Shown: piece by piece, positions 4,238-62,300 of the stretch
How the letters are laid out: each line of letters begins with the position of its first letter
Numbering within the stretch: the stretch's first letter is position 1
Assembly: GCA_964531325.1 (NCBI GenBank)
Contig: CAZHCW010000018.1
Coordinates: forward strand, 11,785 to 75,784
Direction of reading: 5' to 3'
DNA from: an uncultured Ignavibacteriaceae bacterium
Lineage (GTDB): Bacteria > Bacteroidota > Ignavibacteria > Ignavibacteriales > Ignavibacteriaceae
Length of the DNA stretch: 64,000 bases
Notes under the pieces: generated by a model
Database searches by the model: none
What the model saw: the letters and a program-made list of their open reading frames with translations, nothing else
What the model was told of the DNA's origin: nothing
Position numbers and translations under genes: made by a program

Positions 4238-4325
4238 GAACTTTAGAACTTTAGAACTTCAGAACCTCGGAACTTCAGAACTTTAGAACTTTAGAACTTT
4301 AGAACTTTAGAACTTTAGGACTTTT
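4238..4325. repeat. 8-bp tandem repeat (GAACTTTA)x11, copy 1
   Basis: Eleven head-to-tail 8-mers were counted by hand. Units 3-5 and 11 are variants (gaacttca, gaacctcg, gaacttca, ggactttt). The array starts 50 bp upstream of the minus-strand start at 4188. Confidence 0.95.
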
Positions 4326-7196: not shown

Positions 7197-9239
7197 ATGA
7201 AAAATCTCCTCCTGCTCATCGCTCTTGTTATTATTTTACCATCCAGCCTCTCAGCTCAGGATAATTATATGGTGTTCCTGAAAAACAAAGGCTTCACCGG
7301 TGAATTCTCACACGGAAGTTTCCTGTGGTCATTGGCTGGCTCTACTCTCTCGAGCGAAAGCATCAACAGACGAATAAAACACCTCGGTGAAAAATACTAC
7401 CTTTCGGAGCAGGATATCCCCGTCTCCGCAGAATATATAGCAAAACTTGAATTGACAGGCGCCAAAATTCGCTGGAATCTAAAATGGTTCGATTGTATTT
7501 CTGTTACCGCCGATGCTACAACTCTTGATAAAATAAAAAAACTTGATTTTGTCAGTTATGTACGCCCCGTCATAAAAATTAAAGTCCCACTTGAATTTAG
7601 AAATCCCTTAAATCCCATTGAAGATGATGCCCTGGCTTCCCTCTCCGGAAAGGCTACTACTCCTGACTTTATACCTAATACCTCATACTTTATACCTGAT
7701 AATTATTCAGAGTCAGACCAAAAACTTTACGGCGGGTCTTACACACAGTATAAGATTTCGGATGTACCCGAAGTTAACAGAATGGGTGCTACCGGGAAAG
7801 GTGTGAGGATTGGTGTTCTCGATTCGGGTTTTGACTGGCAAAAACATGAAGCTCTCAAAACGAGAAAGGTTATCGCTGAATACGACTTTGTAAAAAAAGA
7901 TAAAGTAACTGCCAACCAGGAGGGTGACCCTGCCGGCCAACATGGTCATGGTACATTCTGTTTTTCGGTCTGTGGTGGATTCTTCGAAGGAAAACTTGTT
8001 GGTCCTTCTCACGATGCATCCTTTGTTCTGGCAAAAACCGAAACCACTGAATTTGAAAGAATGGTTGAAGAAGATAACTATGCCGCTGCAATTCAATGGA
8101 TGGACAGTATTGGCGTGGATATCACTACCAGTTCACTCGGCTACACTGTTTTTGATGATGCCACCTACAGATATGAAGACCTGACCGGAAATACTGCAAT
8201 CTGTACAAAAGCGATCAATTATGCATTTTCAAAAGGTATTTTAACTTTTACTGCAGCAGGGAATTCTGCAAATGACCCCTGGTTTTATGTTTCAACCCCC
8301 GGCGATGGATATGAAGCTTTGGCAATTGGGGCAGTTACAAAAAATCGTGAAATTGCAGACTTTTCTTCAGGTGGCCCCACTGCCGATGGAAGGATTAAAC
8401 CTGATTTTTCTGCCGCAGGGGTTTCAGTTTTTGGTGCACTTGCATCCTCAAAAAACAAATTTGAAAGATCAAACGGTACTTCAGCCGCAACTCCTATAGC
8501 GGCCGGGATAGGTGGACAACTACTCTCACTCTTTCCACATCTGAAAAACACTCAGGCAAGATTTATCCTGCGCTATACCTCTGATCAAAGAATGATGCCT
8601 GATAACCTTTTTGGATATGGCCTCGTTTCAGCTCTCGAAGCCGTAACCTATCCAAATCTTGAAAAGGAGAGGAACGGGACATGGTCGCTGCACAAACGGT
8701 TTAGAGACAAAGTAAGAGCTAAAAGTGTTTATCTGGTTTACAAAACGGGATATGGCAAAACTGATCGTATCCAGATGAATCAACTTGAGGATCAACACTA
8801 TAAAGTGAATCTTCCAAAAGTGGCAGACAAAGAGGCATTTGAGTTTTGGTTTGATGCGGGTGAATCAACTAATGGTGTAAATTTCCCTTCAACCGGTAGA
8901 AAATATTATACCCTTCCCGACAACGAAAATGTTTATACATCAGTTCCGACAAAAATTAACCTCAATAAATTTGCGAAAGAAAAAGCAGTAAAATTTACAG
9001 GGGTGAATCCAAGAATTTATGTCAAATTTAAAAGCGGTGCAAAATCAACCGTCGTGGTAATCAAAGATATCGCAGGAAATATTGTTTCCTCAATCCCGGT
9101 TGCTGATCTTCACTATGACAACAGAATTATCTGGGATGGTAAAAACTTTTCCGGAAAACGGGTACCTGTTGGAATTTATTCCTCAACAGTAATGATTGAT
9201 GGAAGACCGGGCGGAAAACAGATATTTTTTAGAAGGTGA
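7197..9239 (+). CDS. Secreted S8 (subtilisin-like) serine peptidase with FlgD-Ig-like C-terminal domain
   Basis: Signal peptide. Catalytic triad contexts GVRIGVLDSGFD, HGHGTFCFS and SNGTSAATPIAAG. The C-terminal ~70 aa (VVVIKDIAGNIV...IWDGKNFSGKRVPVGIYSSTV) resemble the C-terminus of the 25361..28606 protein. Confidence 0.9.
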   Translation: MKNLLLLIALVIILPSSLSAQDNYMVFLKNKGFTGEFSHGSFLWSLAGSTLSSESINRRIKHLGEKYYLSEQDIPVSAEYIAKLELTGAKIRWNLKWFDCISVTADATTLDKIKKLDFVSYVRPVIKIKVPLEFRNPLNPIEDDALASLSGKATTPDFIPNTSYFIPDNYSESDQKLYGGSYTQYKISDVPEVNRMGATGKGVRIGVLDSGFDWQKHEALKTRKVIAEYDFVKKDKVTANQEGDPAGQHGHGTFCFSVCGGFFEGKLVGPSHDASFVLAKTETTEFERMVEEDNYAAAIQWMDSIGVDITTSSLGYTVFDDATYRYEDLTGNTAICTKAINYAFSKGILTFTAAGNSANDPWFYVSTPGDGYEALAIGAVTKNREIADFSSGGPTADGRIKPDFSAAGVSVFGALASSKNKFERSNGTSAATPIAAGIGGQLLSLFPHLKNTQARFILRYTSDQRMMPDNLFGYGLVSALEAVTYPNLEKERNGTWSLHKRFRDKVRAKSVYLVYKTGYGKTDRIQMNQLEDQHYKVNLPKVADKEAFEFWFDAGESTNGVNFPSTGRKYYTLPDNENVYTSVPTKINLNKFAKEKAVKFTGVNPRIYVKFKSGAKSTVVVIKDIAGNIVSSIPVADLHYDNRIIWDGKNFSGKRVPVGIYSSTVMIDGRPGGKQIFFRR

Positions 9240-9362
9240 TTCAGGCAGGATAAAAAAAACCTGAAAGCGTAGTCAATACTTTATCTCAAAGTTGTGGAAG
9301 TCTAGAAGTTCAATTACTTCATCATTCCCAAATAAGACAGCGCTTTCAGGAAATTATTGGAT

Positions 9363-9515
9363 CAAAGGGACTACTGATAAAGTGTGCCTCCTCTGTTTGT
9401 TTTTAAAGATACTAATTCAAAGGGACTACTGATAAAGCTTGCCTCCTCTGTTGTTTTTAAAAGTCTGTTTAAAAGGGACTACTGATAAAGATTGCCTCCT
9501 TTGTTTGTTTTTGAT
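9363..9515 (+). repeat. Three tandem ~54-bp repeats
   Basis: The core AAAGGGACTACTGATAAAG-nnn-GCCTCCTYTGTTTGTTTTT occurs three times. The GGG of each copy starts at 9367, 9422 and 9475. Confidence 0.9.
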
Positions 9516-9619: not shown

Positions 9620-9790
9620 ATTCGGACCTCACCCCCGGATCCTCTCCTAAAATGAGAGGGGTGGATTACGATTGAAAATAAATCCGCGATAATCCGTTTC
9701 ATCCGCGTTCTATCCTCCTGTTTCGTTTTGCAGACGGCAATCGGGACGATTACCACTCCTCACACTTGCGCTAAAAATCCGCGATCTATC
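9620..9790 (+). repeat. Dispersed intergenic repeat, family A (hairpin module, heptamers and a 45-bp module shared with 57438)
   Basis: cctcacccccggatcctctcctaaaatgagagggg is followed by aatccgcg, aatccgtt and catccgcg. Then gacggcaatcgggacgattaccactcctcacact is identical to 57438-57471. Confidence 0.8.
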
Positions 9791-9934
9791 AAACATTATT
9801 GGATTACTGCATTATTGGATTATCATGAAGACCTGCGTTTCATCACAACTTTTTCACATTTTAAGATAGTTATTGTTTCTCAAATAAATTATTATTAGAT
9901 TCCTTACATACAAAACTGAAGTTTGGATCTGTAC

Positions 9935-12900
9935 ATGAAAAAGTTATTCTTCTTCGTTATTATTATAATTTCTACCGTATTTCCACAAACCAAACCCGAA
10001 CTTATCCTTCCCGTTGGACACAAAAACAAAATAGATGCAGTGAACTTCAGCCCCGATGGGAAATTAATTCTTTCGGCGAGCTGGGACAACACCGCCAAAC
10101 TGTGGGATGCTAAAACAGGGGTACTGCTTCGCAATATTGAGGCTCACCGTGAAGAGGTTGTGGATGCTCAGTTCAGTCCTGACGGTAGCATGTTTTTCAC
10201 TCTTTCCTGGGATCAATCGATAAAAATTTGGGAAACCGTTTCGGGTAAATTGATCCATAATTTTTTCACTGAAGGAGATGCTGTAACGGGAGCTTCATTT
10301 AGTCCTGATGGGAAAAGGCTATTAATTACAGGATATGAAGGGAGGGTGGAAGTAAGGGATTTGGCTTCAGGAAATGTAGTTTTGCCACTGATTGGACATT
10401 CAGGATCCATTGAAACGGGCAGATACAGCAGAGATGGCAAACTGATAGTAACAATAGCCTGGGATGGAACAGTTAAAGTGTGGGACAGTCAAACAGGTAC
10501 TCTTAAACACTCACTCCCTACCGGAAACAACTGGCCTGTGAGTGCAGATTTTAGCTCCGATTCAAAATATTTCTACAGCGCTGCATATAATGGAACCGTA
10601 AGGCTTTGGGAAACTTCAACAGGAAAGATGGTCTCAGAATACAAAGGCATACCCTCTGAACAAAACCTTCCTGTTTTTAGCCCCGACAGCAAAAGTTTTG
10701 TCGTGCCTAATGCCGGTGATTCTGTTAATGTCTTCGAAATAGAAACCGGAACAAACATCGCAACTCTCTATCTCTTTTCCGAAGAACCATGTAATATTTC
10801 AGGGGTTCACTATACCGAAGACGGCTCCAAATTGATGGTCACATTTTTCCAGTCAAATCCGACGATATGGCGCACTGAAGATTATCAATTACTTCATGTG
10901 ATCTTTAGTATCCAATCACTTGTTGGAGCATCAAGCTTCAGTCCGGATGGAAATTCTGCTGTTTTTGCTGACTATAATGGCAAAATTATTACGGTGGATG
11001 TTGAAACAGGAGAACAGTTAACTGATCTGACGGGTAAAACTGTTTCAATAAATTCAGCGAATTTTAATCCTGATGGAGATAAAATAGTTGCCACCTACGA
11101 TAACGACAGTCTAAAGATACTCGATGTTTTAACAGGAAAAGCCCGCAGCATCAACCCGGGTGAGAGTATTGTGTCATGGTTTGCCGGCTTCAGCCCGGAT
11201 GGTAAAAAGATATTGGTGCCGGGTCTGGATTATTCTCTTCTTGTAATGGATGTTAATTCGGGTGAAGTAAAAAATCGGGTTGTGGGGAATGAAAATTTTC
11301 TGGTTGCTGCAGAATTTAGTCCTGAGTCTGATAAGGTTGTCTCTGTTACAATGGACTCCTCTGCTTCACTTTGGAATTTAAAAACCAATAAGGAGGAAAA
11401 AAATCTGAGTTGCGTAAGCGGCGACCCCTCATCCGTTGCATTTAGCCCCGATGGGAAAAAGATCGCCATCGCAAGAAGGGACAGCACCACTTCCATAATT
11501 GACCTCGCATCCGGAAAAGTGATTCTTACACTCTTTGGACATGTTTCATTCGTAAATTCTGCCAGATTTAATAAAGCAGGCACCAAAATAGTAACGGCAT
11601 CTCTCGATCAAACTGTTAAGGTGTGGGACGCAATCACAGGCAGTGGACTGCTTACTCTTTATGGACATAATTATAGTGTTTTATCCGCTTATTTTGATGA
11701 TGAAGGTGACAAGATAATATCGTTTGGAGAAGATAAACAGGCCATAGTCTGGGATGCAATCTCGGGTGAAATATTGAGTAAAATAAGCCTCAAAGGGATT
11801 GGCAAGGATGTAAATTTTAAGCGGGATATGGTGGTCTCCCATAAAAACAGCCTTCTTACTTTTTATGATCTTACCGATGGTTACGAACTTCTCTCGTTTG
11901 CCACATTTGGAACGGAAGACTGGTTTGTTACTCATCCATCCGGACTTTTTGACGCCTCCCCCGGAGCGATGGAACAGATGTATTATGTTCAAGGCCTCGA
12001 TATCATCGAATTTAACCAGTTGAAAGATAAATACTGGGAGCCGGGGCTTTTCAAAAAAATCATGAATGGTGAACAACTCCGCTCAGTTGAGGCGATCGAT
12101 AAAGAGATGGAGCTTTGGCCTGAAGTGAAGGGATTCGAGTTTAGTGGAAATTATGAAAAAGTGAATGTGACGGTCGAAAATAAAGGTGGTGGAATAGGTA
12201 AAATCCAGGTACTACTAAATGGCAAGGAAATGATAGCCGATGCCAGAGGTCCCGAATTGGATGTTTCCCAACGCACGGCTTTGTTAAGTATCGACTTAAA
12301 AAACCATCCCTATCTTATAAATGGAGAAAACAAAATTGAAATAATCACATGGAACAAAGATGGAAATCTTTCAAGTCCCGGTGATGTTGCTGATTTTCTT
12401 TTTGAAAAAGAAAAACTTGAGCCGGCAATTTTTATTGTTTCTGTGGGTGTTGGCGATTATACGGGAGATAAATTAGACTTAAAATATGCGGGGAAAGATG
12501 CCGGCGACATTTTCACCGCTCTGAATGTTGGTGCCCAACATCTCTTTTCGAAGGAGAGAACTTTTTCTTATTTGCTTTCAACAGATAACAAGTCAGGATT
12601 GATGCCAACAAAGGTCAACATCGTAAAAACCTTTAACGAAATAGCTAAAAAAGCGTCTTCAGAAGATGTAATAGTTGTATATCTTGCAGGTCATGGTATG
12701 AACCTTGGTGGTGAGGAGGGTGATCTCCACTATCTCACGCAGGATGCATTTTCTCCAAATCCTGAAGTTTATAAAGATGAATCGGTTAGAAAATCCACCA
12801 CCATTTCCGGAGTTGAACTGATTGAACTTCTTAAAAATGTTGCCGCGTTAAAACAGGTTCTGATAATTGATGCCTGTGCATCGGGCAAATTGGTGGATAA

Positions 12901-13585
12901 CCTCGCCGAGAAACGGGATATTTCGAGTTCTGTTATCAAAGCCATGGAAAGGATGAAGGACAGAACAGGTTTGCATATTATCACAGGAAGTGCAGCCGAT
13001 GCAGTGAGTTACGAAGCAAGCAAGTATGGTCAGGGTTTGCTTACCTACTCAATTCTTTCAGGGATGCGTGGTCTTGCCCTAAAAGACAACAGATCGGTGG
13101 ATATCAGCCTGCTTATGCAACATGCCCGGGAGATGGTACCCAAACTTGCTGAAGGGATAGGTGGAATTCAGGAGCCGAGGATCTTTTCACCAAAAGGGGC
13201 AGAAAGTTTTGATATCGGAATTCTCGATGACAAAGAAAAATCGATGATTCCCCTCTCGCAGGAGAAAGTAATATTCGTTAACTCGGTATTTATGGATATA
13301 ACTGAATTGTCTGACCACCTGAATCTCGCAGAACAAATCGATGAAAAACTTTCGGCAATTTCTGAAAATGGAAGTGCTAAATTGATCTTTTGGAATGTGA
13401 AGAGTTATCCCGGAGCCAACAAACTTTCAGGAACTTATTCACTGACGGGAGATAATATCGAAATAACTTTCAAAATTTTGCAGGATAAATACACTATAAA
13501 ATCGTTCACCAAAAAAGGAACTAAAAGCAAACTGGATATGCTTATAAATGATATTATTGGAGCAGTAGTGGAGAGTATAAGATAA
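9935..13585 (+). CDS. Exported multi-WD40/beta-propeller protein with C-terminal caspase-like (peptidase C14) domain
   Basis: Signal peptide MKKLFFFVIIIISTVFPQ; the ATG at 9935 is preferred over the TTG at 9923. About 14 or more FSPDG...WD repeats. Caspase dyad contexts VIVVYLAGHGM (His codon 12692..12694) and VLIIDACASGK (Cys codon 12875..12877). Confidence 0.85.
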   Translation: MKKLFFFVIIIISTVFPQTKPELILPVGHKNKIDAVNFSPDGKLILSASWDNTAKLWDAKTGVLLRNIEAHREEVVDAQFSPDGSMFFTLSWDQSIKIWETVSGKLIHNFFTEGDAVTGASFSPDGKRLLITGYEGRVEVRDLASGNVVLPLIGHSGSIETGRYSRDGKLIVTIAWDGTVKVWDSQTGTLKHSLPTGNNWPVSADFSSDSKYFYSAAYNGTVRLWETSTGKMVSEYKGIPSEQNLPVFSPDSKSFVVPNAGDSVNVFEIETGTNIATLYLFSEEPCNISGVHYTEDGSKLMVTFFQSNPTIWRTEDYQLLHVIFSIQSLVGASSFSPDGNSAVFADYNGKIITVDVETGEQLTDLTGKTVSINSANFNPDGDKIVATYDNDSLKILDVLTGKARSINPGESIVSWFAGFSPDGKKILVPGLDYSLLVMDVNSGEVKNRVVGNENFLVAAEFSPESDKVVSVTMDSSASLWNLKTNKEEKNLSCVSGDPSSVAFSPDGKKIAIARRDSTTSIIDLASGKVILTLFGHVSFVNSARFNKAGTKIVTASLDQTVKVWDAITGSGLLTLYGHNYSVLSAYFDDEGDKIISFGEDKQAIVWDAISGEILSKISLKGIGKDVNFKRDMVVSHKNSLLTFYDLTDGYELLSFATFGTEDWFVTHPSGLFDASPGAMEQMYYVQGLDIIEFNQLKDKYWEPGLFKKIMNGEQLRSVEAIDKEMELWPEVKGFEFSGNYEKVNVTVENKGGGIGKIQVLLNGKEMIADARGPELDVSQRTALLSIDLKNHPYLINGENKIEIITWNKDGNLSSPGDVADFLFEKEKLEPAIFIVSVGVGDYTGDKLDLKYAGKDAGDIFTALNVGAQHLFSKERTFSYLLSTDNKSGLMPTKVNIVKTFNEIAKKASSEDVIVVYLAGHGMNLGGEEGDLHYLTQDAFSPNPEVYKDESVRKSTTISGVELIELLKNVAALKQVLIIDACASGKLVDNLAEKRDISSSVIKAMERMKDRTGLHIITGSAADAVSYEASKYGQGLLTYSILSGMRGLALKDNRSVDISLLMQHAREMVPKLAEGIGGIQEPRIFSPKGAESFDIGILDDKEKSMIPLSQEKVIFVNSVFMDITELSDHLNLAEQIDEKLSAISENGSAKLIFWNVKSYPGANKLSGTYSLTGDNIEITFKILQDKYTIKSFTKKGTKSKLDMLINDIIGAVVESIR

Positions 13586-18616: not shown

Positions 18617-20098
18617 TTAAAAATCTACCGGAGTATCATTAATCTCCCGTGCAGCAGTTGGAGCCTCTTTACTCGATTCAGGTCTAAACATCGCCATTAT
18701 TCCATATCTTTGTTCATCAAGGGCATGATCTGAAATTGAAGGGTCGTTCCCCTTTCCTTTTATATCCTCAGGGTCTTTTGTATCGTAGGTAACCGACATC
18801 ATTTCTGCAAGAAGAGGTTCATTTAATCCTTCAAAAATGAAGTATTTGGGTGGTTTTCCCTCCGAAGGAAATAAACTTTTCCATCCCCACCAGCCTGTTT
18901 TGCGGGAATTGTAGGCGGGACTTAAAAACAACCCCTCCACTTCAAAAACATCAGCAAATGTGTTTTCGTGGGCAATTACCGAAAATCTTTCCTTTTTTGC
19001 AAACGCATCAGTACCCGAAACGATAATCGAAGGTTTTCTGCCCCCTAACAATTTTCCTGTAACCGAATCCGGTTTTAACATCTCACTAATTGCCCGGGCA
19101 TGATCAACGGGTGTCCTCTGTTTTTCATAATATGTAAAAACCCTGTAATAGATTCCATTGTGGTCTCTGGCGGTTACACCAAAAGAACATGGAGAACTGA
19201 ATCCCGGATCGATGCTCCCTGTTAATGTCCAATCGGGTGGAATGGTAAAAGGTGGAATCACTTGTTGAAGTCTGTCAAAGTTTTTAAAGAACATCCCGCC
19301 AAAAACCTCCCAATCGCCATAAAGGTAAGCTAATCGTAATTCATTGGGAAGGGATTTTAGGTTCGCCGCATAAGTGCTTTTATCGATACAATATTCTCTT
19401 CTCTCCTCCTCACTCCATTTATTGTAATATGTGTCGGCAGAAATACCATCTTTTTTTAAGTGTTTTAATGACCAGAAAATATTATCCCATAAATATGATT
19501 GAATAAAATGAAATTGTGCGGGGTCTTCGTGTTTTTCAAATTTCCGATCTATAAAAAGTCGTTTAAGATATGAATGAGACACTCCACCCGGATTCATGGT
19601 TAAAATCATCTTGGGTGTGAATCCCGGTTTTACGGATCGATTGGAAGTTTTCAGAAACTGTATCTGATGAGGAGTACAATGTGAAGCTTCATCAATAAAT
19701 ACCAGATCAAACTCAAAACCCTGGAAAGAATAGATATCACTTTCACTGTCTGCGTATCCAAACTGAACTATGGGAGTGCCATCGGGAGCATACAATATTT
19801 TTTCTGATTTATTGTAATGCTCCATAATCTTTGGGTGGTTTTCATACAGAGGAAGTATGTGGTTCTTCAACAACTCTTTTGAATACCGTCTGAATATTAA
19901 AGATTTATAAGCAAACTCCGGCGAGAGTCCCAGAAGCACAGCAATCTCCCTGATGGCATGACTTTTTGCTCCACCTCGTGCTCCTCCATATCCAATCCAT
20001 GAATAACTGCTCCCCGTAATCAATTCTTTCAGCAGAAGTTGTTTTGGAAGCAGACTAAATTTTTCAATTTTAACAGGAGATTTTTTCCTGATAGTCAC
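18617..20098 (-). CDS. terL: Phage terminase large subunit (ATPase plus nuclease), apparently intact
   Basis: 493 aa. Walker A YGGARGGAKSH, Walker B DLVFIDEASH, nuclease-domain motifs SIDPGFSSP and SDHALDEQRYG. Confidence 0.85.
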   Translation of the reverse strand: MTIRKKSPVKIEKFSLLPKQLLLKELITGSSYSWIGYGGARGGAKSHAIREIAVLLGLSPEFAYKSLIFRRYSKELLKNHILPLYENHPKIMEHYNKSEKILYAPDGTPIVQFGYADSESDIYSFQGFEFDLVFIDEASHCTPHQIQFLKTSNRSVKPGFTPKMILTMNPGGVSHSYLKRLFIDRKFEKHEDPAQFHFIQSYLWDNIFWSLKHLKKDGISADTYYNKWSEEERREYCIDKSTYAANLKSLPNELRLAYLYGDWEVFGGMFFKNFDRLQQVIPPFTIPPDWTLTGSIDPGFSSPCSFGVTARDHNGIYYRVFTYYEKQRTPVDHARAISEMLKPDSVTGKLLGGRKPSIIVSGTDAFAKKERFSVIAHENTFADVFEVEGLFLSPAYNSRKTGWWGWKSLFPSEGKPPKYFIFEGLNEPLLAEMMSVTYDTKDPEDIKGKGNDPSISDHALDEQRYGIMAMFRPESSKEAPTAAREINDTPVDF

Positions 20099-20544: not shown

Positions 20545-20571
20545 AAAAAGACTGCCCCTTTCGAGACAGCC
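20545..20571 (-). terminator. Intrinsic terminator with GAAA tetraloop
   Basis: The minus strand reads GGCTGTCTC-GAAA-GGGGCAGTC followed by TTTTT. The sequence is nearly identical to the terminator at 51023..51050. Confidence 0.7.
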
Positions 20572-20586
20572 TTAATTTGCTCTGAG

Positions 20587-20675
20587 TGTGTGGCATCAAT
20601 TGCCACGAATATATATCCCGCTCTGCGGGAATTGGCTGGGGTGATGTGTCAACGAACGCTAACATATAATTTATT
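20587..20675 (+). repeat. Repeat family B (~54-bp unit containing a CCCGC-TCT-GCGGG hairpin)
   Basis: gtgtgtggcatcaattgccacgaatatatatcccgctctgcgggaattgg is followed by a degenerate second unit. Two further units lie at 57227..57324. Confidence 0.8.
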
Positions 20676-50898: not shown

Positions 50899-51022
50899 AG
50901 CCAAATTAATTTCTTGAGATGTAAACAAAAGTGCAGACTTCGGAAGAAAATGGATTGACCCAAATAATGATTAAAAAAGACAACGAAGAAATCGATTTGT
51001 CAGAATCTGATGGTAAAATTAT

Positions 51023-51050
51023 AAAAAAGGCTGCCCCTTTCGAGACAGCC
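51023..51050 (-). terminator. Intrinsic terminator with GAAA tetraloop
   Basis: The minus strand reads GGCTGTCTC-GAAA-GGGGCAGCC followed by T6. It lies ~95 nt downstream of the stop at 51145. Confidence 0.8.
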
Positions 51051-51144
51051 ATTATAAATTAGATATTGATTTCAGATTCCTGTTCCTCCGACTGAATTCA
51101 GAGTTTATCGGTACAGTACGCTACTCTGCTACTTCGATACTCTG

Positions 51145-54100
51145 CTACTTAAGAAACAAAGCTTTCATCGTTTTAGTGTAACTTGTGCTCGTAAGTTCGA
51201 GCGATTGAGCACTCAAACGGAAAATATAAACACCGGAAGAGAACTTCGTTCCATTGAATCTTTTTTCGTACATGCCCTTTTCCATCTCACCGGAGACAAG
51301 TTCTGCAACCTTTTGTCCTGCAATGTTGTAAACATCCAGGGTTACATTGCTTCTCTCTTTGAGGGAGAATTTTATCACTGTCTAAGGATTAAATGGATTG
51401 GGATAGTTGTTGTATAGAGTATAGTCATATTCAATTCCTTCAGATTTTGTTCCACTTACCTGAGGTTTGTTCATTGGACCATTTCCTGATGTTGAATTAT
51501 TTGACACTTCACTAAACAACAGGTTTGCTGATTTTGTGTATTCAGATGTCGGGAAATTACTGTTCAGATAAGTAAGTATAGGGGTAACCATTCCAACTGT
51601 ATCAATTAGTCCTGACGATTTGTATTTCTCTTCAAGAAGATTGTTGTAAATCATCATTACTTCTTCACTGTTGTCACCTGCTCCATACATCTTATTGTTT
51701 CCTGCATTCAGGATTTCCTGTTTGTATGTATCCATGTTTTCAGTGTCAATATTCATTAAGAGTCTTGTGGTAAACTTAAAGAGACCACCCACATTTCTTA
51801 TTGAAAGCAGATTACTTTTTAATTCACTCATATTGACATACTCATAACATTGAGGAATTAAACTGATAGCAGATTTTTTGTATCTGACATCAGCAGTTCC
51901 GTTTATGATATCTGTAAGAACAACAAGAGCATCACGAAGTTGTCCTTGGACAATCATTCTTTTGACATCTTTTATCAGAGTCTTAATACTGTCAGGGTCT
52001 CCGCCACTTTCCATCTGCTTCGGTGATGAAGAACCACCACTCAACATATTTGGATTCAGCCATATCCCTGAACAATCAGAATTGAAGCCATCTGTATTTA
52101 CGGTTATTCCACTGCCTAAAATTATTCTGAATTCACTTGGGTCTGTTGTTCCCCAATCATTACCATAAGCATCTATTTCGTAATCCAACCCCGGAGTTTC
52201 ATTTACTGTCCGGAGACTTGTTGTATCAGCATAAAAACAATTTCCACCAATATAGTTTTCTTTACTGTCAATCATCCCAAGAATTGGAGTCGAATTAACT
52301 GCGTAAATTGAAGTACCATTTAGATAGAATCTGTTATTACCAACTGTATCTGCAGTTTTAAGTAACCTCGGTGCAGAACCCGTGTATGCCCTTAAGGCGT
52401 GCTCAGTAATATTTGTAAACAAGTTATTATGTAGCCTTGGTTTGGATCCAACCATTGTAATTCCCCACAACTGACTGTCTTCGAAGGAAGAATTCCTGAT
52501 CACGGTGTTATCAGAACCATAGTTGTAACTGTAGTACAAACTTATTCCGGTATGCGTATTTTCTGTCGATACCCCATCAATTGTGTCTCCGGGGCTAACA
52601 TGACTGTATATACCACAACTGGCATTCTTTATTATCGCATTACTGATTTTCAGAGGAGTTCTGTAAGCAAATATTCCGTTACCGGCTGACCAGTGTTTTG
52701 CAACAAAGTCAAATTCCACTTTGTTGGTTGGTGTACCTTTAACCTCAAGTTGGCCATCCAGGATCAGTAGTTTGCCTGACTACATAAAAGTCAAGTTGGC
52801 ACCGGCATTTACAGTCAACTTAACATTCTGAGGAACTACAAGAGTAGTATCAACAGTATTTGAGCCTGATCTGATTGTTTCATTTGCTACAAGTGTTCCA
52901 CCGGTTTGAACTGTTGGTTCAATCTTTAGGAGTGTACCATGCCCTGCTTTAAGGAAAAGGGTAACCCATCCATCATTGGTTGTGTAATAAACTGAATCTG
53001 ACTTAAGGTCGGTAACTGTATAATTCCTGAATGTTGTATCCATATTGAGCCGAAATGAAATATTCCTGTCTGAATTATCGGTGGTAAGATCGTCTAAATC
53101 AGGTTCCTGAATATTACATCTTCTGTTAACCAGGTAAATATATTTTGCATCAACAATCTTTCCTGCAGGAGGATTAAGTTCATTAAAATAGCCGATTTCT
53201 ACATACTTATTTACATCCGGTGGGTAAAAAGTGCCCGGATATTGTGTATATACTTCAGATATCCAATCTATCGTATAATCTTCAGCACTGTGCCAGCTAA
53301 TTGCATCAAGCCAGTTTAATCCAAGAATTTTATTCTCAATTTTCCTGGTATCGTCAATTAGGGCTTTTGTTGCGTAATATCTGTAGTTTGGTACTTGAGC
53401 ATTACACGGGTTTTGAACCAGTCCCTCTCCATCGGTACCCAAATAGGGATTTTGGAATTCATCAAAAATTCCAAAGGTATTCCATACAGTTTTATTTGGT
53501 TCCGGTTCTGCATTCCAAGTAGGAGTCATATATATCATAAATCCTTTGGCTCCGTAAGCGAGTGCCATGTTTCCCTGAACAAATATTTCATCTCTTGTTG
53601 GTGCTCTCCTCATACTTGTCGCATTCGGGACTATACTAAACTGACCACCGGAATTATATACCACATGCTCAGCATGAACTTGTAAAATATATATCAGAGG
53701 GATGTCATTGGTAAGTTGGGTATCAAATTTTTTAGCTGCTCTTATTGCAGGGCGTAGTCCTAAAAACTGATAAGAGAGGGTATCTGGATCATCACCGATG
53801 AATCGGAAATTCACCAACTCCTCAAGTGCAGTTTGAACATCTGACTGGGTTGTATCAACCTCTTGTCTGAAAGGATAAACATTATAGAGAAGATATTTTC
53901 TCTTATATTCTTCATCTGTTGCGGATTTCCCGTATTGTTGGTCAAACCGCATTCCTCATTCGGCGTGAGGACCTACTGCCCCATTTAATTCCATGGCAGT
54001 TGTACTTCCAGCAAGTGTTGACCATACCAAATCATTTATGTGTGAGAATGCTTCCGTTGCAAGAAGAGGTGGTTCATCCACATACATGCTGTGCAGGGCT

Positions 54101-55212
54101 GAACCCGCATTTTGATATTTAGTTGTAATTTGAGTACTAAAATCAGGTGGTGCGATCGGATTGGATTTGAGAGTAGGATTAAACATTCTGTCGTAGAATT
54201 CATTAAACATAATCATTCTATCACAGTAAATTGTTGCTTCCCCTGTTCAAACTGCATAATAAGCAATATTTGTATCTCCGGGTACCTTAAAAGCAGGAGT
54301 AGTGATCCATCTATAAGTTCCGGCAGAGTCCATCAACTGTCCGGCTGTTACCTTATAAGCAGCAGACAAAAAATTAGTCTCTATCCCCTCTGTAAAGTTT
54401 GGCTCTTCAATGGTCATATTTGAGTTGTATGGTCTCTGGTATAATGCATCGCCGGCAATTACATAAATCGATAAAACCACAGCATGTGGATCAACTTCTT
54501 TTTCAAGCTCATTTGCATCTCCCCTAATGAAAAATGACAACTGATAAGTTGTATCAGCATGGGGGAAATGCCCTGCTTCAATGTTGCCATAGAACATCGT
54601 GCCACCCCTTGTATGATTGTCCTCTTCTGAAGCATATCTGACTAGACTCTCGCCCAAAGGTGGGACATCATCAAATTCGTCATTGCCTGTCAATTGGGGA
54701 CTTCCAGCCGGTTGTTTTGTTGGTTCCATCGCCCAACGGGAGGACATATCGGTAGTCCCAAAACCATAGTTTTTCTGATCCGGGTTCCATGTCATATCCC
54801 AATAGCCCCCGATTTGATGTCCAAATTTGTCGGGATTGTTCCCTGTTGCCTTTACATATCTCCCCGGATCAAATGGTCCATCACCATTTCCATCCCAACC
54901 AAAGTCCATGTCAAGGAATTTGATATTACCGTAAGTGGAATTAAGTGATGGGTACGATTTGATAAATCCGAAATCACTGACGATGTTGGTCAATCCCAAA
55001 TTTACTAAGGAAGGGTAATAAAAGCTTTTTAAAAGCATACTATCCACATAGGCTTGTGAACTACAATTATGTTCTTGCCTTGCATGCTTTGGATAGACCG
55101 CAAAGTCCCAAAATGACATGTAAGGGAAGTAGTCCTTTCCCGGAACTCCTGAATTTTGGCTAAAAGATACCGAAGTTAGAATTAAGATTGTAATTATTAT
55201 TAATCTTTTCAT
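51145..55212 (-). pseudogene. Giant secreted beta-helix protein gene with T9SS sorting domain, interrupted by four in-frame stop codons
   Basis: Five track ORFs (54247..55212, 53956..54216, 52780..53952, 51382..52719, 51145..51378) share one frame, because every coordinate difference is divisible by 3. The stops are TGA at 54247..54249, TGA at 53956..53958, TAG at 52780..52782 and TAG at 51382..51384. The first piece carries the signal peptide MKRLIIITILILTSVSFSQ. The last TAG splits the sorting motif NYPNPFNP*TVIKFSL. Confidence 0.8.
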
Positions 55213-55242
55213 TGAAATTTTCTCCAGAATTATTTATTCTAC

Positions 55243-56841
55243 TTATTTTGTTAAAACTATCTTCACACTTTTTTTATTTCCTTTTTTATTCATAAATGCT
55301 CCTTCATTTGTTTGTAAATCAGTTGATTTAAGTAACATATCAAGTATATAAACCCCTGATGATATGTTCAATTCTCTGAAATCAATCTTCTCGGTTCTTT
55401 TACCGGCTGTAACTTCAATTCCCTTTTTTATCAGTTCCCTTCCTGTGGTGTTATATAATCTTAATTCTGCATACCCGCTGTAATTTCCTGCTATTTCAAC
55501 AGTTATCTCTCCCATTGTTGGATTTGGGTACGCTTTTAGTGTAATTTCTTCTTTTTCCGCATTTTCTACTTCATCATCTTCAATAGCCATGGCAACTCTT
55601 TCTCCAGCCATGATGTAGAATGTTCCTTGTGCAGCTCCGGGTTCACCGTGAGTACCAATTCCAATATCGTCAAGTCCGTCACCGTTTACATCTCCAACCC
55701 GTTCAATTATATTTGTAGGCCCTGAATAATATTTGATTGGCGTGTCATCCGGTTTATGATTTCCTCCTAGGAAAAGTCTTCCTCCACTATAGGACAATGA
55801 TGTTAAAAAATCTCCATAGCCATCCCCATTAACATCCCCAATCGAGCGACTATAAGTCCATCCCTCATTTTGTGTATTAAAACCTTCTTCCGGAGTAATA
55901 TTCACATCTCTTGTTCCGTAGCTGATTCCTATCCGATACCAATATGGATATTTGTTCTGTCCATCGTGAGTTAACAAATCAGCTTTTCCATCTTTATTTA
56001 TATCCTGAATAATGTTGTTATTGCCTACAAGTTGAAAGGACTCCAAGAAATTCACGGTATCTTCGAATGAAAAATCAGCTCTTCCAAACACAAATCTTCT
56101 CAGGTCAAAGTTTACTGGAATTGAAGGACTGTTGAGTAAAAAAGTCAAATCAGTTCTACCATCTCCATCCAGGTCTCCGTGGGTTATATCTACACCTTGT
56201 ATAGCCTCATCTGGATAGTAAGTTACTATTTGATCCGGGATCGAATCCATTTCCGGTGAGGAATTGTATATCAGAAAAGCACTTTTACGATCAAACATTT
56301 CATAGGCTCTTACGATCAATTCTTCATATCCATCTCCATTGAAATCTACCGGCCAGTCTCCTCCAATAAACTTGAAAGAACCCACTGAATTATCCGGAGC
56401 TCTAAAGGTGAAATCGGGGATTGTATCCATGTTCGGACCCCCAAGATATATATTAAGTACTAAGGGCTTCAAATTAAATGTAGTAATAATCAAATCTCTA
56501 TATCCATCCCTGTTAAAGTCACAAGCACTGATGGTGTTAGATATGGAGCCCTTAAATGCAACTTCGAAGACAGGATTGGGGCTGATTGGGTTTCCCCCAT
56601 AGAAAAGCAAGGCTTTTGCATCATAACCCCAAGTGGAAGGATATGTGACAAGTACAAAATCATCGCGACCATCATCATTCTGGTCACCCATGAAGATGAC
56701 AGTCCGTGGTGCGTATATATCATTCCTCGCAAATATAATCGAATCAAACTGGGCTTTAACTTCCGTTGACATTGTTAACAAAAGAAGAAGCAATCCAGAT
56801 AATGGCACAAATCGAAACGGGTTTAGTTTTAATTTAAACAT
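55243..56841 (-). CDS. FG-GAP/VCBS-repeat beta-propeller protein with T9SS sorting domain
   Basis: Signal peptide. Repeats DFNRDGYRDL, DFNGDGYEEL, DLDGDGRTDL, DINKDGKADL, DVNGDGYGDF and DVNGDGLDDI. The C-terminus is LKAYPNPTMGEITVEI...GVYILDMLLKS.... Confidence 0.82.
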   Translation of the reverse strand: MFKLKLNPFRFVPLSGLLLLLLTMSTEVKAQFDSIIFARNDIYAPRTVIFMGDQNDDGRDDFVLVTYPSTWGYDAKALLFYGGNPISPNPVFEVAFKGSISNTISACDFNRDGYRDLIITTFNLKPLVLNIYLGGPNMDTIPDFTFRAPDNSVGSFKFIGGDWPVDFNGDGYEELIVRAYEMFDRKSAFLIYNSSPEMDSIPDQIVTYYPDEAIQGVDITHGDLDGDGRTDLTFLLNSPSIPVNFDLRRFVFGRADFSFEDTVNFLESFQLVGNNNIIQDINKDGKADLLTHDGQNKYPYWYRIGISYGTRDVNITPEEGFNTQNEGWTYSRSIGDVNGDGYGDFLTSLSYSGGRLFLGGNHKPDDTPIKYYSGPTNIIERVGDVNGDGLDDIGIGTHGEPGAAQGTFYIMAGERVAMAIEDDEVENAEKEEITLKAYPNPTMGEITVEIAGNYSGYAELRLYNTTGRELIKKGIEVTAGKRTEKIDFRELNISSGVYILDMLLKSTDLQTNEGAFMNKKGNKKSVKIVLTK

Positions 56842-57226
56842 AGAATTTCCTCACACAAAGTTTGTGTTGATGGATCAAAAAAGGAAGATTTAGAATGAAA
56901 AGTTTGTGGAAGGTACAAAAAAGTTGGATATCCCAAATTAAAAGCGGAACTAATGATAAGAGAAGACAGGAAGTTACAAACTGACAGATCAGTTTCTATT
57001 TCTCTTGTTTGAGAAAAGGAGACTTCTCTACAAGTTACAGGATTATAAAAGCTACAAACGACATTCCACCAAAGCATCATGCCCTCATAGGCTCCGAAAT
57101 CAACGATTTATGGAGTCAACTATTAAAAAATATTGTTTCCGGGTATTAAAGTATGAATATTCAATTTATTAAACAAATTTAAAAATGCTTTTTTAAGAAA
57201 ATTTTTTGGGTGTTGAAAAAAAGAGT

Positions 57227-57324
57227 CAACAAATGCTACGAATATTTATCCCGCTCTGCGGGAATTGGTCAAGGTAAGTGTGTCATCGATTGCTACGAAT
57301 ATATATCCCGCTCTGCGGGAACTT
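57227..57324 (+). repeat. Repeat family B, two tandem ~54-bp units
   Basis: gtcaacaaatgctacgaatatttatcccgctctgcgggaattgg is followed by gtgtgtcatcgattgctacgaatatatatcccgctctgcgggaactt. This matches 20587..20636. Confidence 0.85.
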
Positions 57325-62066: not shown

Positions 62067-62140
62067 TATAACCTCCATGCTTTATTATTACGAACCATTA
62101 TTATCAAACACAAGTTCCCAAAAGCCTCAACTCACTCAAG

Positions 62141-62300
62141 TTCTAAGGTTCTAAAGTTCTAAGGTTCTAAGGTTCTAAAGTTCTAAGGTTCTAAGGTTCT
62201 AAAGTTCTAAAGTTCTAAGGTTCTAAAGTTCTAAAGTTCTAAAGTTCTAAAGTTCTAAAGTTCTAAGGTTCTGAGCTTCCGAAGTTCCGGGGTTCCAAAT
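62141..62300. repeat. 8-bp tandem repeat (TTCTAAAG/TTCTAAGG)x~20, copy 2, inverted relative to copy 1
   Basis: Twenty head-to-tail 8-mers were counted by hand, and the last four are degenerate. TTCTAAAG is the reverse complement of a rotation of GAACTTTA at 4238..4325. Confidence 0.95.

Follow-up and report, generated by a model that had tools for sequence, protein, structure and literature searches.

Four in-frame stop codons in a large secreted-protein gene of an uncultured Ignavibacteriales bacterium: a probable young pseudogene in a strain-variable cassette

Introduction

How does a gene of 4.1 kb come to carry four in-frame stop codons and not a single frameshift? The question is raised by a locus on the minus strand of a 64-kb stretch of DNA (here called the window) from an uncultured Ignavibacteriales bacterium. 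An earlier note, made from the sequence alone, described five minus-strand ORFs that lie in the same frame and are parted by four single stops, and took them for the remains of one protein of about 1,350 aa. It named recent multi-hit inactivation, selection for truncated products, read-through of the stops, and consensus artefacts from a mixed population as possible causes. The first of these fits the results presented here best. The gene is probably an ordinary, very young pseudogene that resides in a dispensable, strain-variable cassette.

Structure of the interrupted gene

Translation of 51145-55212 (minus strand) bears out the description of the five ORFs: there is a single frame of 1,356 codons with four internal stops and no frameshift, and all five pieces share it. 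A frame of this length with just four stops cannot be due to chance in DNA of 40% GC and, together with its homology to other proteins, this identifies it as a real gene. Its parts, from the N-terminus, are as follows.

54250..55212, minus strand: segment 1, codons 1-321, with a signal-peptide-like N-terminal start (MKRLIIITILILTSVSFSQ, judged by eye only) and the beginning of an uncharacterised N-terminal module
54247..54249, minus strand: internal stop 1, TGA, codon 322; ancestral TGG (Trp); plus-strand 54247 is T, versus C in relatives
53959..54246, minus strand: segment 2, codons 323-418
53956..53958, minus strand: internal stop 2, TGA, codon 419; ancestral TGG (Trp); plus-strand 53956 is T, versus C in relatives
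52783..53955, minus strand: segment 3, codons 420-810, a conserved module
52780..52782, minus strand: internal stop 3, TAG, codon 811; ancestral AAG (Lys); plus-strand 52782 is A, versus T in relatives
51385..52779, minus strand: segment 4, codons 812-1276, a right-handed beta-helix (NosD/Beta_helix) and, after it, helical repeats
51382..51384, minus strand: internal stop 4, TAG, codon 1277, where the T9SS sorting domain begins; ancestral GAG (Glu); plus-strand 51384 is A, versus C in relatives
51148..51381, minus strand: segment 5, T9SS type-A C-terminal sorting domain (TIGR04183, PF18962)
51145..51147, minus strand: natural stop codon, TAG

The last piece had been read as a T9SS sorting domain, and profile matches agree (TIGR04183, 24.6 bits against a cut-off of 23; PF18962, E 8e-6). 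The same domain is found in the intact orthologue P0001 (PF18962, 35.2 bits, cut-off 27). Segment 4 matches PF05048 (NosD/beta-helix) with 36.5 bits, above the gathering cut-off of 23.6, and in the AF2 model of P0003 residues 390-650 are confidently predicted as all-beta. The module in segment 3 has no match in Pfam or PDB; it does have 129 remote relatives, and a T9SS sorting domain was present in all seven of those tested. The N-terminal module (~760 aa) gave no match by sequence in Pfam, NCBIfam, or PDB. Its consensus sequence produced only a sub-threshold match to Melibiase_C (E 0.038), and a profile search returned close family members only. AF2 confidence over this module is low (pLDDT <50), and the top Foldseek matches, with TM-scores <0.1, are meaningless.

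Judged by these features, the ancestral product is predicted to be a large T9SS-secreted protein of ~1,355 aa, comprising a putative signal peptide, the N-terminal module, a beta-helix, helical repeats, and the sorting domain. It resembles T9SS type-A cargo (Por_Secre_tail/TIGR04183 with a beta-helix) in its putative signal peptide, its NosD/Beta_helix passenger, and a C-terminal sorting domain that opens with NYPNPFNP. It differs from such cargo in that its N-terminal module has no counterpart among Pfam families or solved structures, and in that a stop in the window copy cuts the sorting domain off from the passenger.

Intact and broken relatives

The orthologue P0001 is one intact protein of 1,356 aa that aligns end to end with the window frame at 73% identity, and all length differences between the two are multiples of 3. 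Two further relatives, P0002 (1,321 aa) and the ORF of L007 (1,322 aa), are likewise intact single ORFs. The proposal of one original protein is thereby confirmed by intact, colinear orthologues; the case that the earlier note had named as its refutation, orthologues that exist as five separate genes, was not seen, the relatives encoding a single protein.

Closer relatives (~90% or more amino acid identity) carry W, W, K, and E where the window copy has its four stops, in codons that are one base away from a stop. Each internal stop is therefore a single base change (TGG to TGA twice, AAG to TAG, and GAG to TAG), and the changes are isolated, not part of imported clusters of change. The Trp at codon 322 is invariant across the six aligned family members. 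The TAG at 51382 had been placed at a Ser/Thr position of the sorting-domain motif; this proved incorrect, as direct relatives have Glu (GAG) there. None of the four sites is a stop in any relative. Near-identical copies were not found in genome and metagenome contigs, the closest DNA relative being 90% identical. The five pieces thus derive from a single ancestral gene, in which every stop arose by a single base change.

Other copies of the gene are also broken. The copy in L019/L020 has a TGA at Trp303, and that in L017/L018 has a TGA at Gly72 and a deletion of 232 nt. The L015 copy is deleted and truncated, and frameshifts are found in L008, L010, and a second copy in L019. L019 is identical to L020, and the same TGA occurs in L017 and L018. 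Paralogous copies are present at 84-90% identity. The gene family has been broken repeatedly, by stops, deletions, and frameshifts.

A strain-variable cassette

The broken gene is one component of a larger unit, whose features are listed below.

55243..56841, minus strand: intact partner gene for an FG-GAP/VCBS repeat protein that has a T9SS sorting domain of its own; 30 nt separate it from the broken gene, which lies downstream
50957..57234, no strand assigned: strain-variable 6.3-kb cassette (partner gene, broken gene, terminator), replaced by ~100 nt in the conspecific contig L024 and the sister lineage L021
51029..51050, minus strand: intrinsic terminator hairpin (GGCTGTCTCGAAAGGGGCAGCC) and T run, downstream of the big gene
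57235..57321, minus strand: REP-like hairpin element (TTCCCGCAGAGCGGGATA...), two copies directly adjoining the cassette at its upstream end
20552..20631, minus strand: orphan copy of the cassette terminator hairpin (20552-20571) with a REP-like element (20602-20631)

An intact FG-GAP partner in the same operon had been reported before, and the gene at 55243-56841 is indeed intact; partner and big gene are paired at every fetched locus. Past the end of the 4.1-kb frame, the hairpin at 51029..51050 is the sole strong terminator on that strand, and all family copies with a fetched 3' flank have this hairpin downstream of the big gene. L024 is 99.4-100% identical to the window on both flanks and lacks the cassette. 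The same polymorphism of occupied and empty sites is repeated in a second lineage (L022 versus L021), and the sites at which the cassette is found differ among L001, L004, L005, and L019. The orphan hairpin at 20552..20631 occupies the exact position at which the related genome L001 carries its cassette, which suggests that a cassette was once present here and has been lost. The left junction of the cassette is matched at 100% identity by an independent Logan assembly from run ERR3839025.

The cassette is accessory and dispensable. It resembles flexible genomic islets in that near-identical strains with identical flanks may either have it or lack it, in occurring at several sites in related genomes, and in being bounded by short repeated hairpin elements. 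It differs in containing neither an integrase nor a transposase.

Genetic code and recoding

An in-frame TGA at a Trp position or a TAG within a conserved gene is reminiscent of stop-codon reassignment (TGA to Trp or Gly in codes 4 and 25; TAG to Gln in some phages and in code 15). A change of genetic code can, however, be rejected. Long ORFs in the window terminate in TAA 17, in TGA 14, and in TAG 9 times, so that all three stop codons end other genes here; TGA and TAG together close 23 long ORFs, the broken gene with its own TAG among them. The lengths of window genes equal those of their orthologues in L001 and L021. In a scan of the window and all loci (282 kb), single internal stops in real genes were confined to this family, and the remaining ~55 kb of coding sequence in the window has none. 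Unlike in reassignment, then, in-frame stops affect one gene, its neighbours terminate with TGA or TAG, and the TAG sites were formerly Lys and Glu. As the code is standard, translation is expected to end at codon 322.

Programmed read-through and the insertion of selenocysteine or pyrrolysine are rejected as well, since orthologues encode W, W, K, and E at the stops and no recoding signal was detected with Rfam (no element, such as SECIS, at gathering score in the window). The 64-kb window contains no tRNA genes and hence no suppressor tRNA. By inspection, the stretches that surround the four stops share no motif that would hint at methylation-linked errors or editing, and no TACG-type TadA site is among them.

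Constraint and mutational pattern

On the branch specific to the window copy, 67 changes are synonymous, 32 missense, and 4 nonsense, and dN/dS is ~0.15. The sister copy in L005 has a dN/dS of 0.12, so that the window branch is similarly low and shows no relaxation of constraint; this value is compatible only with very recent inactivation.

A survey of Salmonella enterica provides a yardstick for the types of mutation involved: 346 of 378 pseudogenes had a single hit, and premature stops made up 131 of these 346 (38%) (Kuo and Ochman 2010, PMC2916853). Given this share, the probability that four of four inactivating changes are nonsense is ~0.02. The window gene resembles the multi-hit pseudogenes of that study (PMC2916853), being intact in relatives, disabled by premature-stop point mutations, strain-specific, young, and located in accessory DNA; it is unlike them in having four changes that are all nonsense, with no indel and no measurable relaxation of dN/dS. 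The earlier note had found it odd that four nonsense codons should occur with no frameshift. That view is only moderately supported. The probability above is low, and the surplus of stops relative to missense changes reaches significance only on the assumption that the gene had earlier been constrained about as strongly as its sister lineages. With a prior omega of 0.12-0.15, three extra stops in the neutral phase have a P of 0.02-0.002, and significance is lost only if omega was <=0.05.

The identity of the stops was also considered. TAA is absent among the four, although it accounts for ~42% of expected nonsense mutations (P ~0.1). Family-wide, six of six nonsense changes are TGA or TAG and none is TAA (P ~0.04 from the TAA share, post hoc). 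Three of the four TGA changes fall on Trp codons, with a P of 0.09-0.17 when transition bias is allowed for and 0.009 under a uniform model; two of these three codons, W302 and W322, are invariant in the alignment. With nonsense changes only, no TAA, and a dN/dS still at 0.15, the mutational pattern is mildly unusual.

Origin of the stop codons

If the gene is a young pseudogene, purifying selection would have acted on it until shortly before the stop mutations, and for this reason the rest of the frame would still resemble a working gene. Four independent single-base nonsense mutations would then have been acquired in the window strain, leaving a predicted 321-aa signal-peptide fragment without the sorting domain, and downstream pieces without an export signal. 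The absence of frameshifts is probably a matter of chance over a short time. Two processes that could have introduced the stops otherwise were rejected: gene conversion from a decayed paralogue, because the stops are isolated single changes carried by no relative, and DGR-type mutagenesis, because adenine is affected in only one of the four changes.

The stops might instead be a composite of a population, if the strain population has several loss-of-function or sense alleles of the cassette and the MAG consensus joins stops from different ones, or if some are minority variants or errors. We regard this as unlikely, but it would also account for the unrelaxed dN/dS, and the cassette varies within populations: two lineages show both occupied and empty alleles. 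The five pieces occur in the deposited NCBI contig. Over 5.9 kb the window is matched at 100% identity by the Logan contig from ERR3839025, which stops 81 nt short of the gene, and exact copies in Logan assemblies were found for none of five cassette proteins versus seven of eight flanking proteins. The paralogous copies could, moreover, tangle an assembly graph. On the other hand, mixing of alleles or paralogues needs reads that bear the stops, and no relative has a stop at these sites; a general error process would also strike the remaining coding sequence of the window, which is free of internal stops. A majority-rule consensus requires each stop to exceed 50%, which implies that they co-occur, and the independent nonsense changes in other assemblies (shared by L019 and L020, and by L017 and L018) indicate that such mutations are real in this family. 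We infer that a single real haplotype carries the four stops together.

Inactivation might also have been selected for, for example if the surface protein is costly or is a target of phage or predators. This is quite improbable, and just as doubtful is a stepwise course in which the stop at codon 1277 came first and stranded the protein in the periplasm, cost cutting then favouring further stops upstream. T9SS cargo without its C-terminal domain accumulates in the periplasm, and the last stop removes exactly the sorting domain. The family has been broken independently in several lineages, the cassette is gained and lost among strains, and stops exceed the neutral-decay prediction if constraint was otherwise unchanged. 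Frameshifts would, however, be equally useful to selection, so that the all-nonsense pattern is left unexplained, and toxicity or phage pressure has no direct support. This account overlaps with that of a young pseudogene and differs from it in cause only.

A very improbable reading is that the stops are leaky or suppressed, allowing low or conditional expression through tRNA-Trp at TGA or a suppressor tRNA encoded elsewhere or by a phage; that the gene is a conditional hypomorph, with stops tolerated as leaky, and not dead is most improbable. The unrelaxed constraint on the window branch would agree with expression of this kind, as would the bias to TGA and TAG and the TGA changes on Trp codons, where read-through by tRNA-Trp would restore the wild-type protein, but the statistical signals were noted post hoc and are individually weak. 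Four successive read-throughs at natural leak rates would yield negligible full-length protein, and no common suppressor would restore the Lys and Glu at the TAG sites. No relative conserves the stops, TGA and TAG serve as ordinary terminators in the window, the gene's own end included, and neither a tRNA nor an Rfam element such as SECIS occurs there. The breakage of other copies by frameshifts and deletions argues against a family-wide read-through system. Genome-wide or strong suppression, which the earlier note had listed, is disfavoured on the same grounds, namely the many genes that close with TGA or TAG, the lack of conservation of the stops, and the indels that disrupt family copies. 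We infer that no full-length product is made.

Implications

A pseudogene in itself matters little. If the stops were read through after all, the locus would be a case of natural nonsense suppression that throttles the expression of a secreted surface protein in an uncultured lineage; if they were separate alleles in one population, it would be an example of parallel, selected loss of a surface protein. As a young pseudogene, it is of a kind that annotation pipelines would split into five hypothetical proteins. Together with its FG-GAP partner, the T9SS cargo family makes up a cassette, an accessory module that has been lost repeatedly in Ignavibacteriales.

A single gene interrupted by four stop codons

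Translation of window positions 51145-55212 (minus strand) yields one frame of 1,356 codons with four internal stops, and all five mechanically called ORFs lie in this frame. The fourth piece carries a NosD/beta-helix domain and the last piece matches a T9SS type-A sorting domain. The FG-GAP partner gene, located 30 nt upstream, is intact and has its own sorting domain. Translation and domain matches thus agree with the description of the locus in the earlier note (one frame, four single stops and an intact FG-GAP partner).

55243-56841, minus strand: FG-GAP partner gene
54247-54249, minus strand: internal stop 1, TGA, codon 322
53956-53958, minus strand: internal stop 2, TGA, codon 419
52780-52782, minus strand: internal stop 3, TAG, codon 811
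51382-51384, minus strand: internal stop 4, TAG, codon 1277
51145-51147, minus strand: natural stop of the beta-helix gene, TAG

The proposal that these pieces derive from one original protein, not five genes, is borne out by intact single-protein relatives. A search with the joined sequence recovered P0001 (1,356 aa, 73% identity, 99% coverage) and P0002 (1,321 aa), and locus L007 contains a further intact ORF of 1,322 aa. Closer relatives, at roughly at least 90%, were found by exact-sequence look-ups (P0034, P0038 and P0039). The residues at the four stop sites are Trp, Trp, Lys and Glu in every relative; the fourth stop had been placed at a Ser/Thr position, which is not so, as the direct relatives have Glu there. 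In the DNA, the codons ancestral to the stops read TGG, TGG, AAG and GAG, and each stop is therefore a single base change. Every length difference between the interrupted gene and its intact orthologue is a multiple of three.

Stop codon usage in the window

Long ORFs in the window terminate with TAA (17), TGA (14) or TAG (9), and the neighbouring genes are equal in length to their orthologues in the 3.2-Mb genome contig L001 and the sister lineage L021. In a scan covering the window plus every locus fetched (282 kb), the only real genes found as two ORFs in one frame with a single stop between them belonged to the beta-helix gene family. On these grounds a different genetic code was rejected. 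The 64-kb window contains neither a tRNA gene nor an Rfam match. One strong intrinsic terminator is found on the strand of the beta-helix gene, after the whole 4.1-kb frame.

Mutational pattern

Sites at which the window departs from three relatives that match one another were assigned to the window-specific branch. This branch carries 67 synonymous, 32 missense and 4 nonsense changes, with a dN/dS of ~0.15, close to that of the sister copy in L005 (0.12); the intact FG-GAP gene is evolving faster. The chance of a stop per random non-synonymous mutation is 0.05-0.06, such that four or more stops have a probability of 0.10-0.16 even if all 32 missense changes are placed after inactivation. If omega was earlier 0.12-0.15, as in sister lineages, the neutral phase was short and the probability of three or more extra stops is 0.02-0.002. 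In Salmonella, premature stops account for 131 of the 346 pseudogenes with a single hit, and multiple hits are seen in only 32 of 378 (PMC2916853); given the former share, four nonsense mutations out of four hits have a probability of ~0.02. TAA, which makes up ~42% of expected nonsense mutations, is absent among the four stops (P ~0.1), and the Trp codons hit by two of these stops and by that of locus L019 give P 0.09-0.17 under transition bias. These tests are post hoc and overlapping; taken together they point either to very recent inactivation or to a contribution from something other than neutral decay, and an exotic mechanism is not required.

The protein family and its broken members

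The N-terminal module (~760 aa) has no sequence match in Pfam, NCBIfam or PDB. Remote relatives number 129 in a full HMMER scan; seven were tested, and each has a T9SS sorting domain, four of them with beta-helix matches as well. A sub-threshold Melibiase_C match and the glycoside-hydrolase neighbourhood hint at a putative role in carbohydrate work. The AF2 model is confident for the beta-helix only, and the fold search was uninformative.

Other copies are also broken. L019/L020 have a single TGA, in frame, at Trp303 and are otherwise colinear over 1,346 codons. In L017/L018 a TGA at Gly72 is accompanied by a 232-nt deletion, which is also present in L015, a truncated copy. Frameshifts affect L008, L010 and the second copy in L019. 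Given these indels, there is no mechanism that yields stops alone. In two metagenome contigs, IS3-family transposase genes (rve) adjoin decayed copies (L018 41-1320, L010 427-1341).

Variable presence of an accessory cassette

The window flanks are 90-93% identical to L001. There, the FG-GAP and beta-helix gene pair is only 73-75% identical to that of the window and occupies another site, between a GH2 gene and the terminase-like gene. In the window, that site holds nothing but a REP-like element and an orphan cassette-terminator hairpin (20552-20631), which we read as the scar of a lost cassette.

51029-51050: cassette terminator hairpin; an orphan copy lies within 20552-20631
18617-20098, minus strand: solitary terminase-large-subunit-like phage gene (phrog_2, E 5e-29; Pfam Terminase_3)

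The conspecific contig L024 is 99.4% identical to the window on the DctQ side of the cassette site and 100% on the ATPase side, and has 100 nt in place of window positions 50957-57234. The same pair of occupied and empty alleles recurs in a second lineage (L022 versus L021). The ATPase-DctQ intergenic site is occupied in the window (50957-57234) and L022 (1-278) and empty in L024 (201-300) and L021 (9783-9882), where the empty alleles hold ~100 nt of unrelated filler. It behaves like a flexible genomic islet without integrase or transposase. The cassette is found in other contexts, also in tandem, in L004, L005 and L019. An independent assembly of run ERR3839025, from Logan, reproduces the left junction exactly and breaks off 81 nt before reaching the gene.

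The REP-like hairpin element TTCCCGCAGAGCGGGATATATATTCGTAGC has only three copies in the window (20552-20631; 57235-57321). Two abut the cassette (57235-57321), and the third marks the L001 cassette site, beside the orphan hairpin; this placement suggests that cassette gain and loss are repeat-associated. GH97 gene fragments flank one L019 cassette copy on both sides (355-1088, 8997-9233), suggesting that this copy either landed inside a glycoside hydrolase gene or was duplicated along with one.

Other features of the window

No other recognisable phage genes lie near the terminase-like gene, which is conserved in the equivalent position in L001; possibly it is what remains of a prophage, or else it has been domesticated. 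One octamer forms two intergenic tandem arrays in opposite orientation, GAACTTTA x11 and AAGTTCTA x17 (4238-4324, 62138-62272). A 53-nt unit is repeated 2.8 times (9362-9512) in the intergenic region upstream of the gene for the 1,220-aa WD40 protein. A 46-nt element (9733-9778) is found again close to the DctQ gene, where it matches L021 9534-9579 and L024 504-549.

9923-13585, plus strand: 1,220-aa bacterial protein, almost wholly WD40 beta-propellers, conserved in L001

Origin of the interrupted gene

Leaky or suppressed stops are disfavoured, because none of the four stops is conserved and both TGA and TAG act as ordinary terminators here. A less likely alternative to a pseudogene is that alleles from the population were merged into a composite, or that the consensus contains errors: the cassette is heterogeneous and Logan assemblies fail to reproduce it, but this explanation needs existing stop-bearing reads, and elsewhere the window is clean. 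Also less likely is selected loss, or truncation in steps starting at the C-terminus. Most likely, the beta-helix gene is an ordinary recent nonsense pseudogene. Translation would halt at codon 322, giving a product without the sorting domain, and the later pieces would have no export signal. On this reading the pseudogene is very young and is carried by a cassette that is dispensable and varies between strains.
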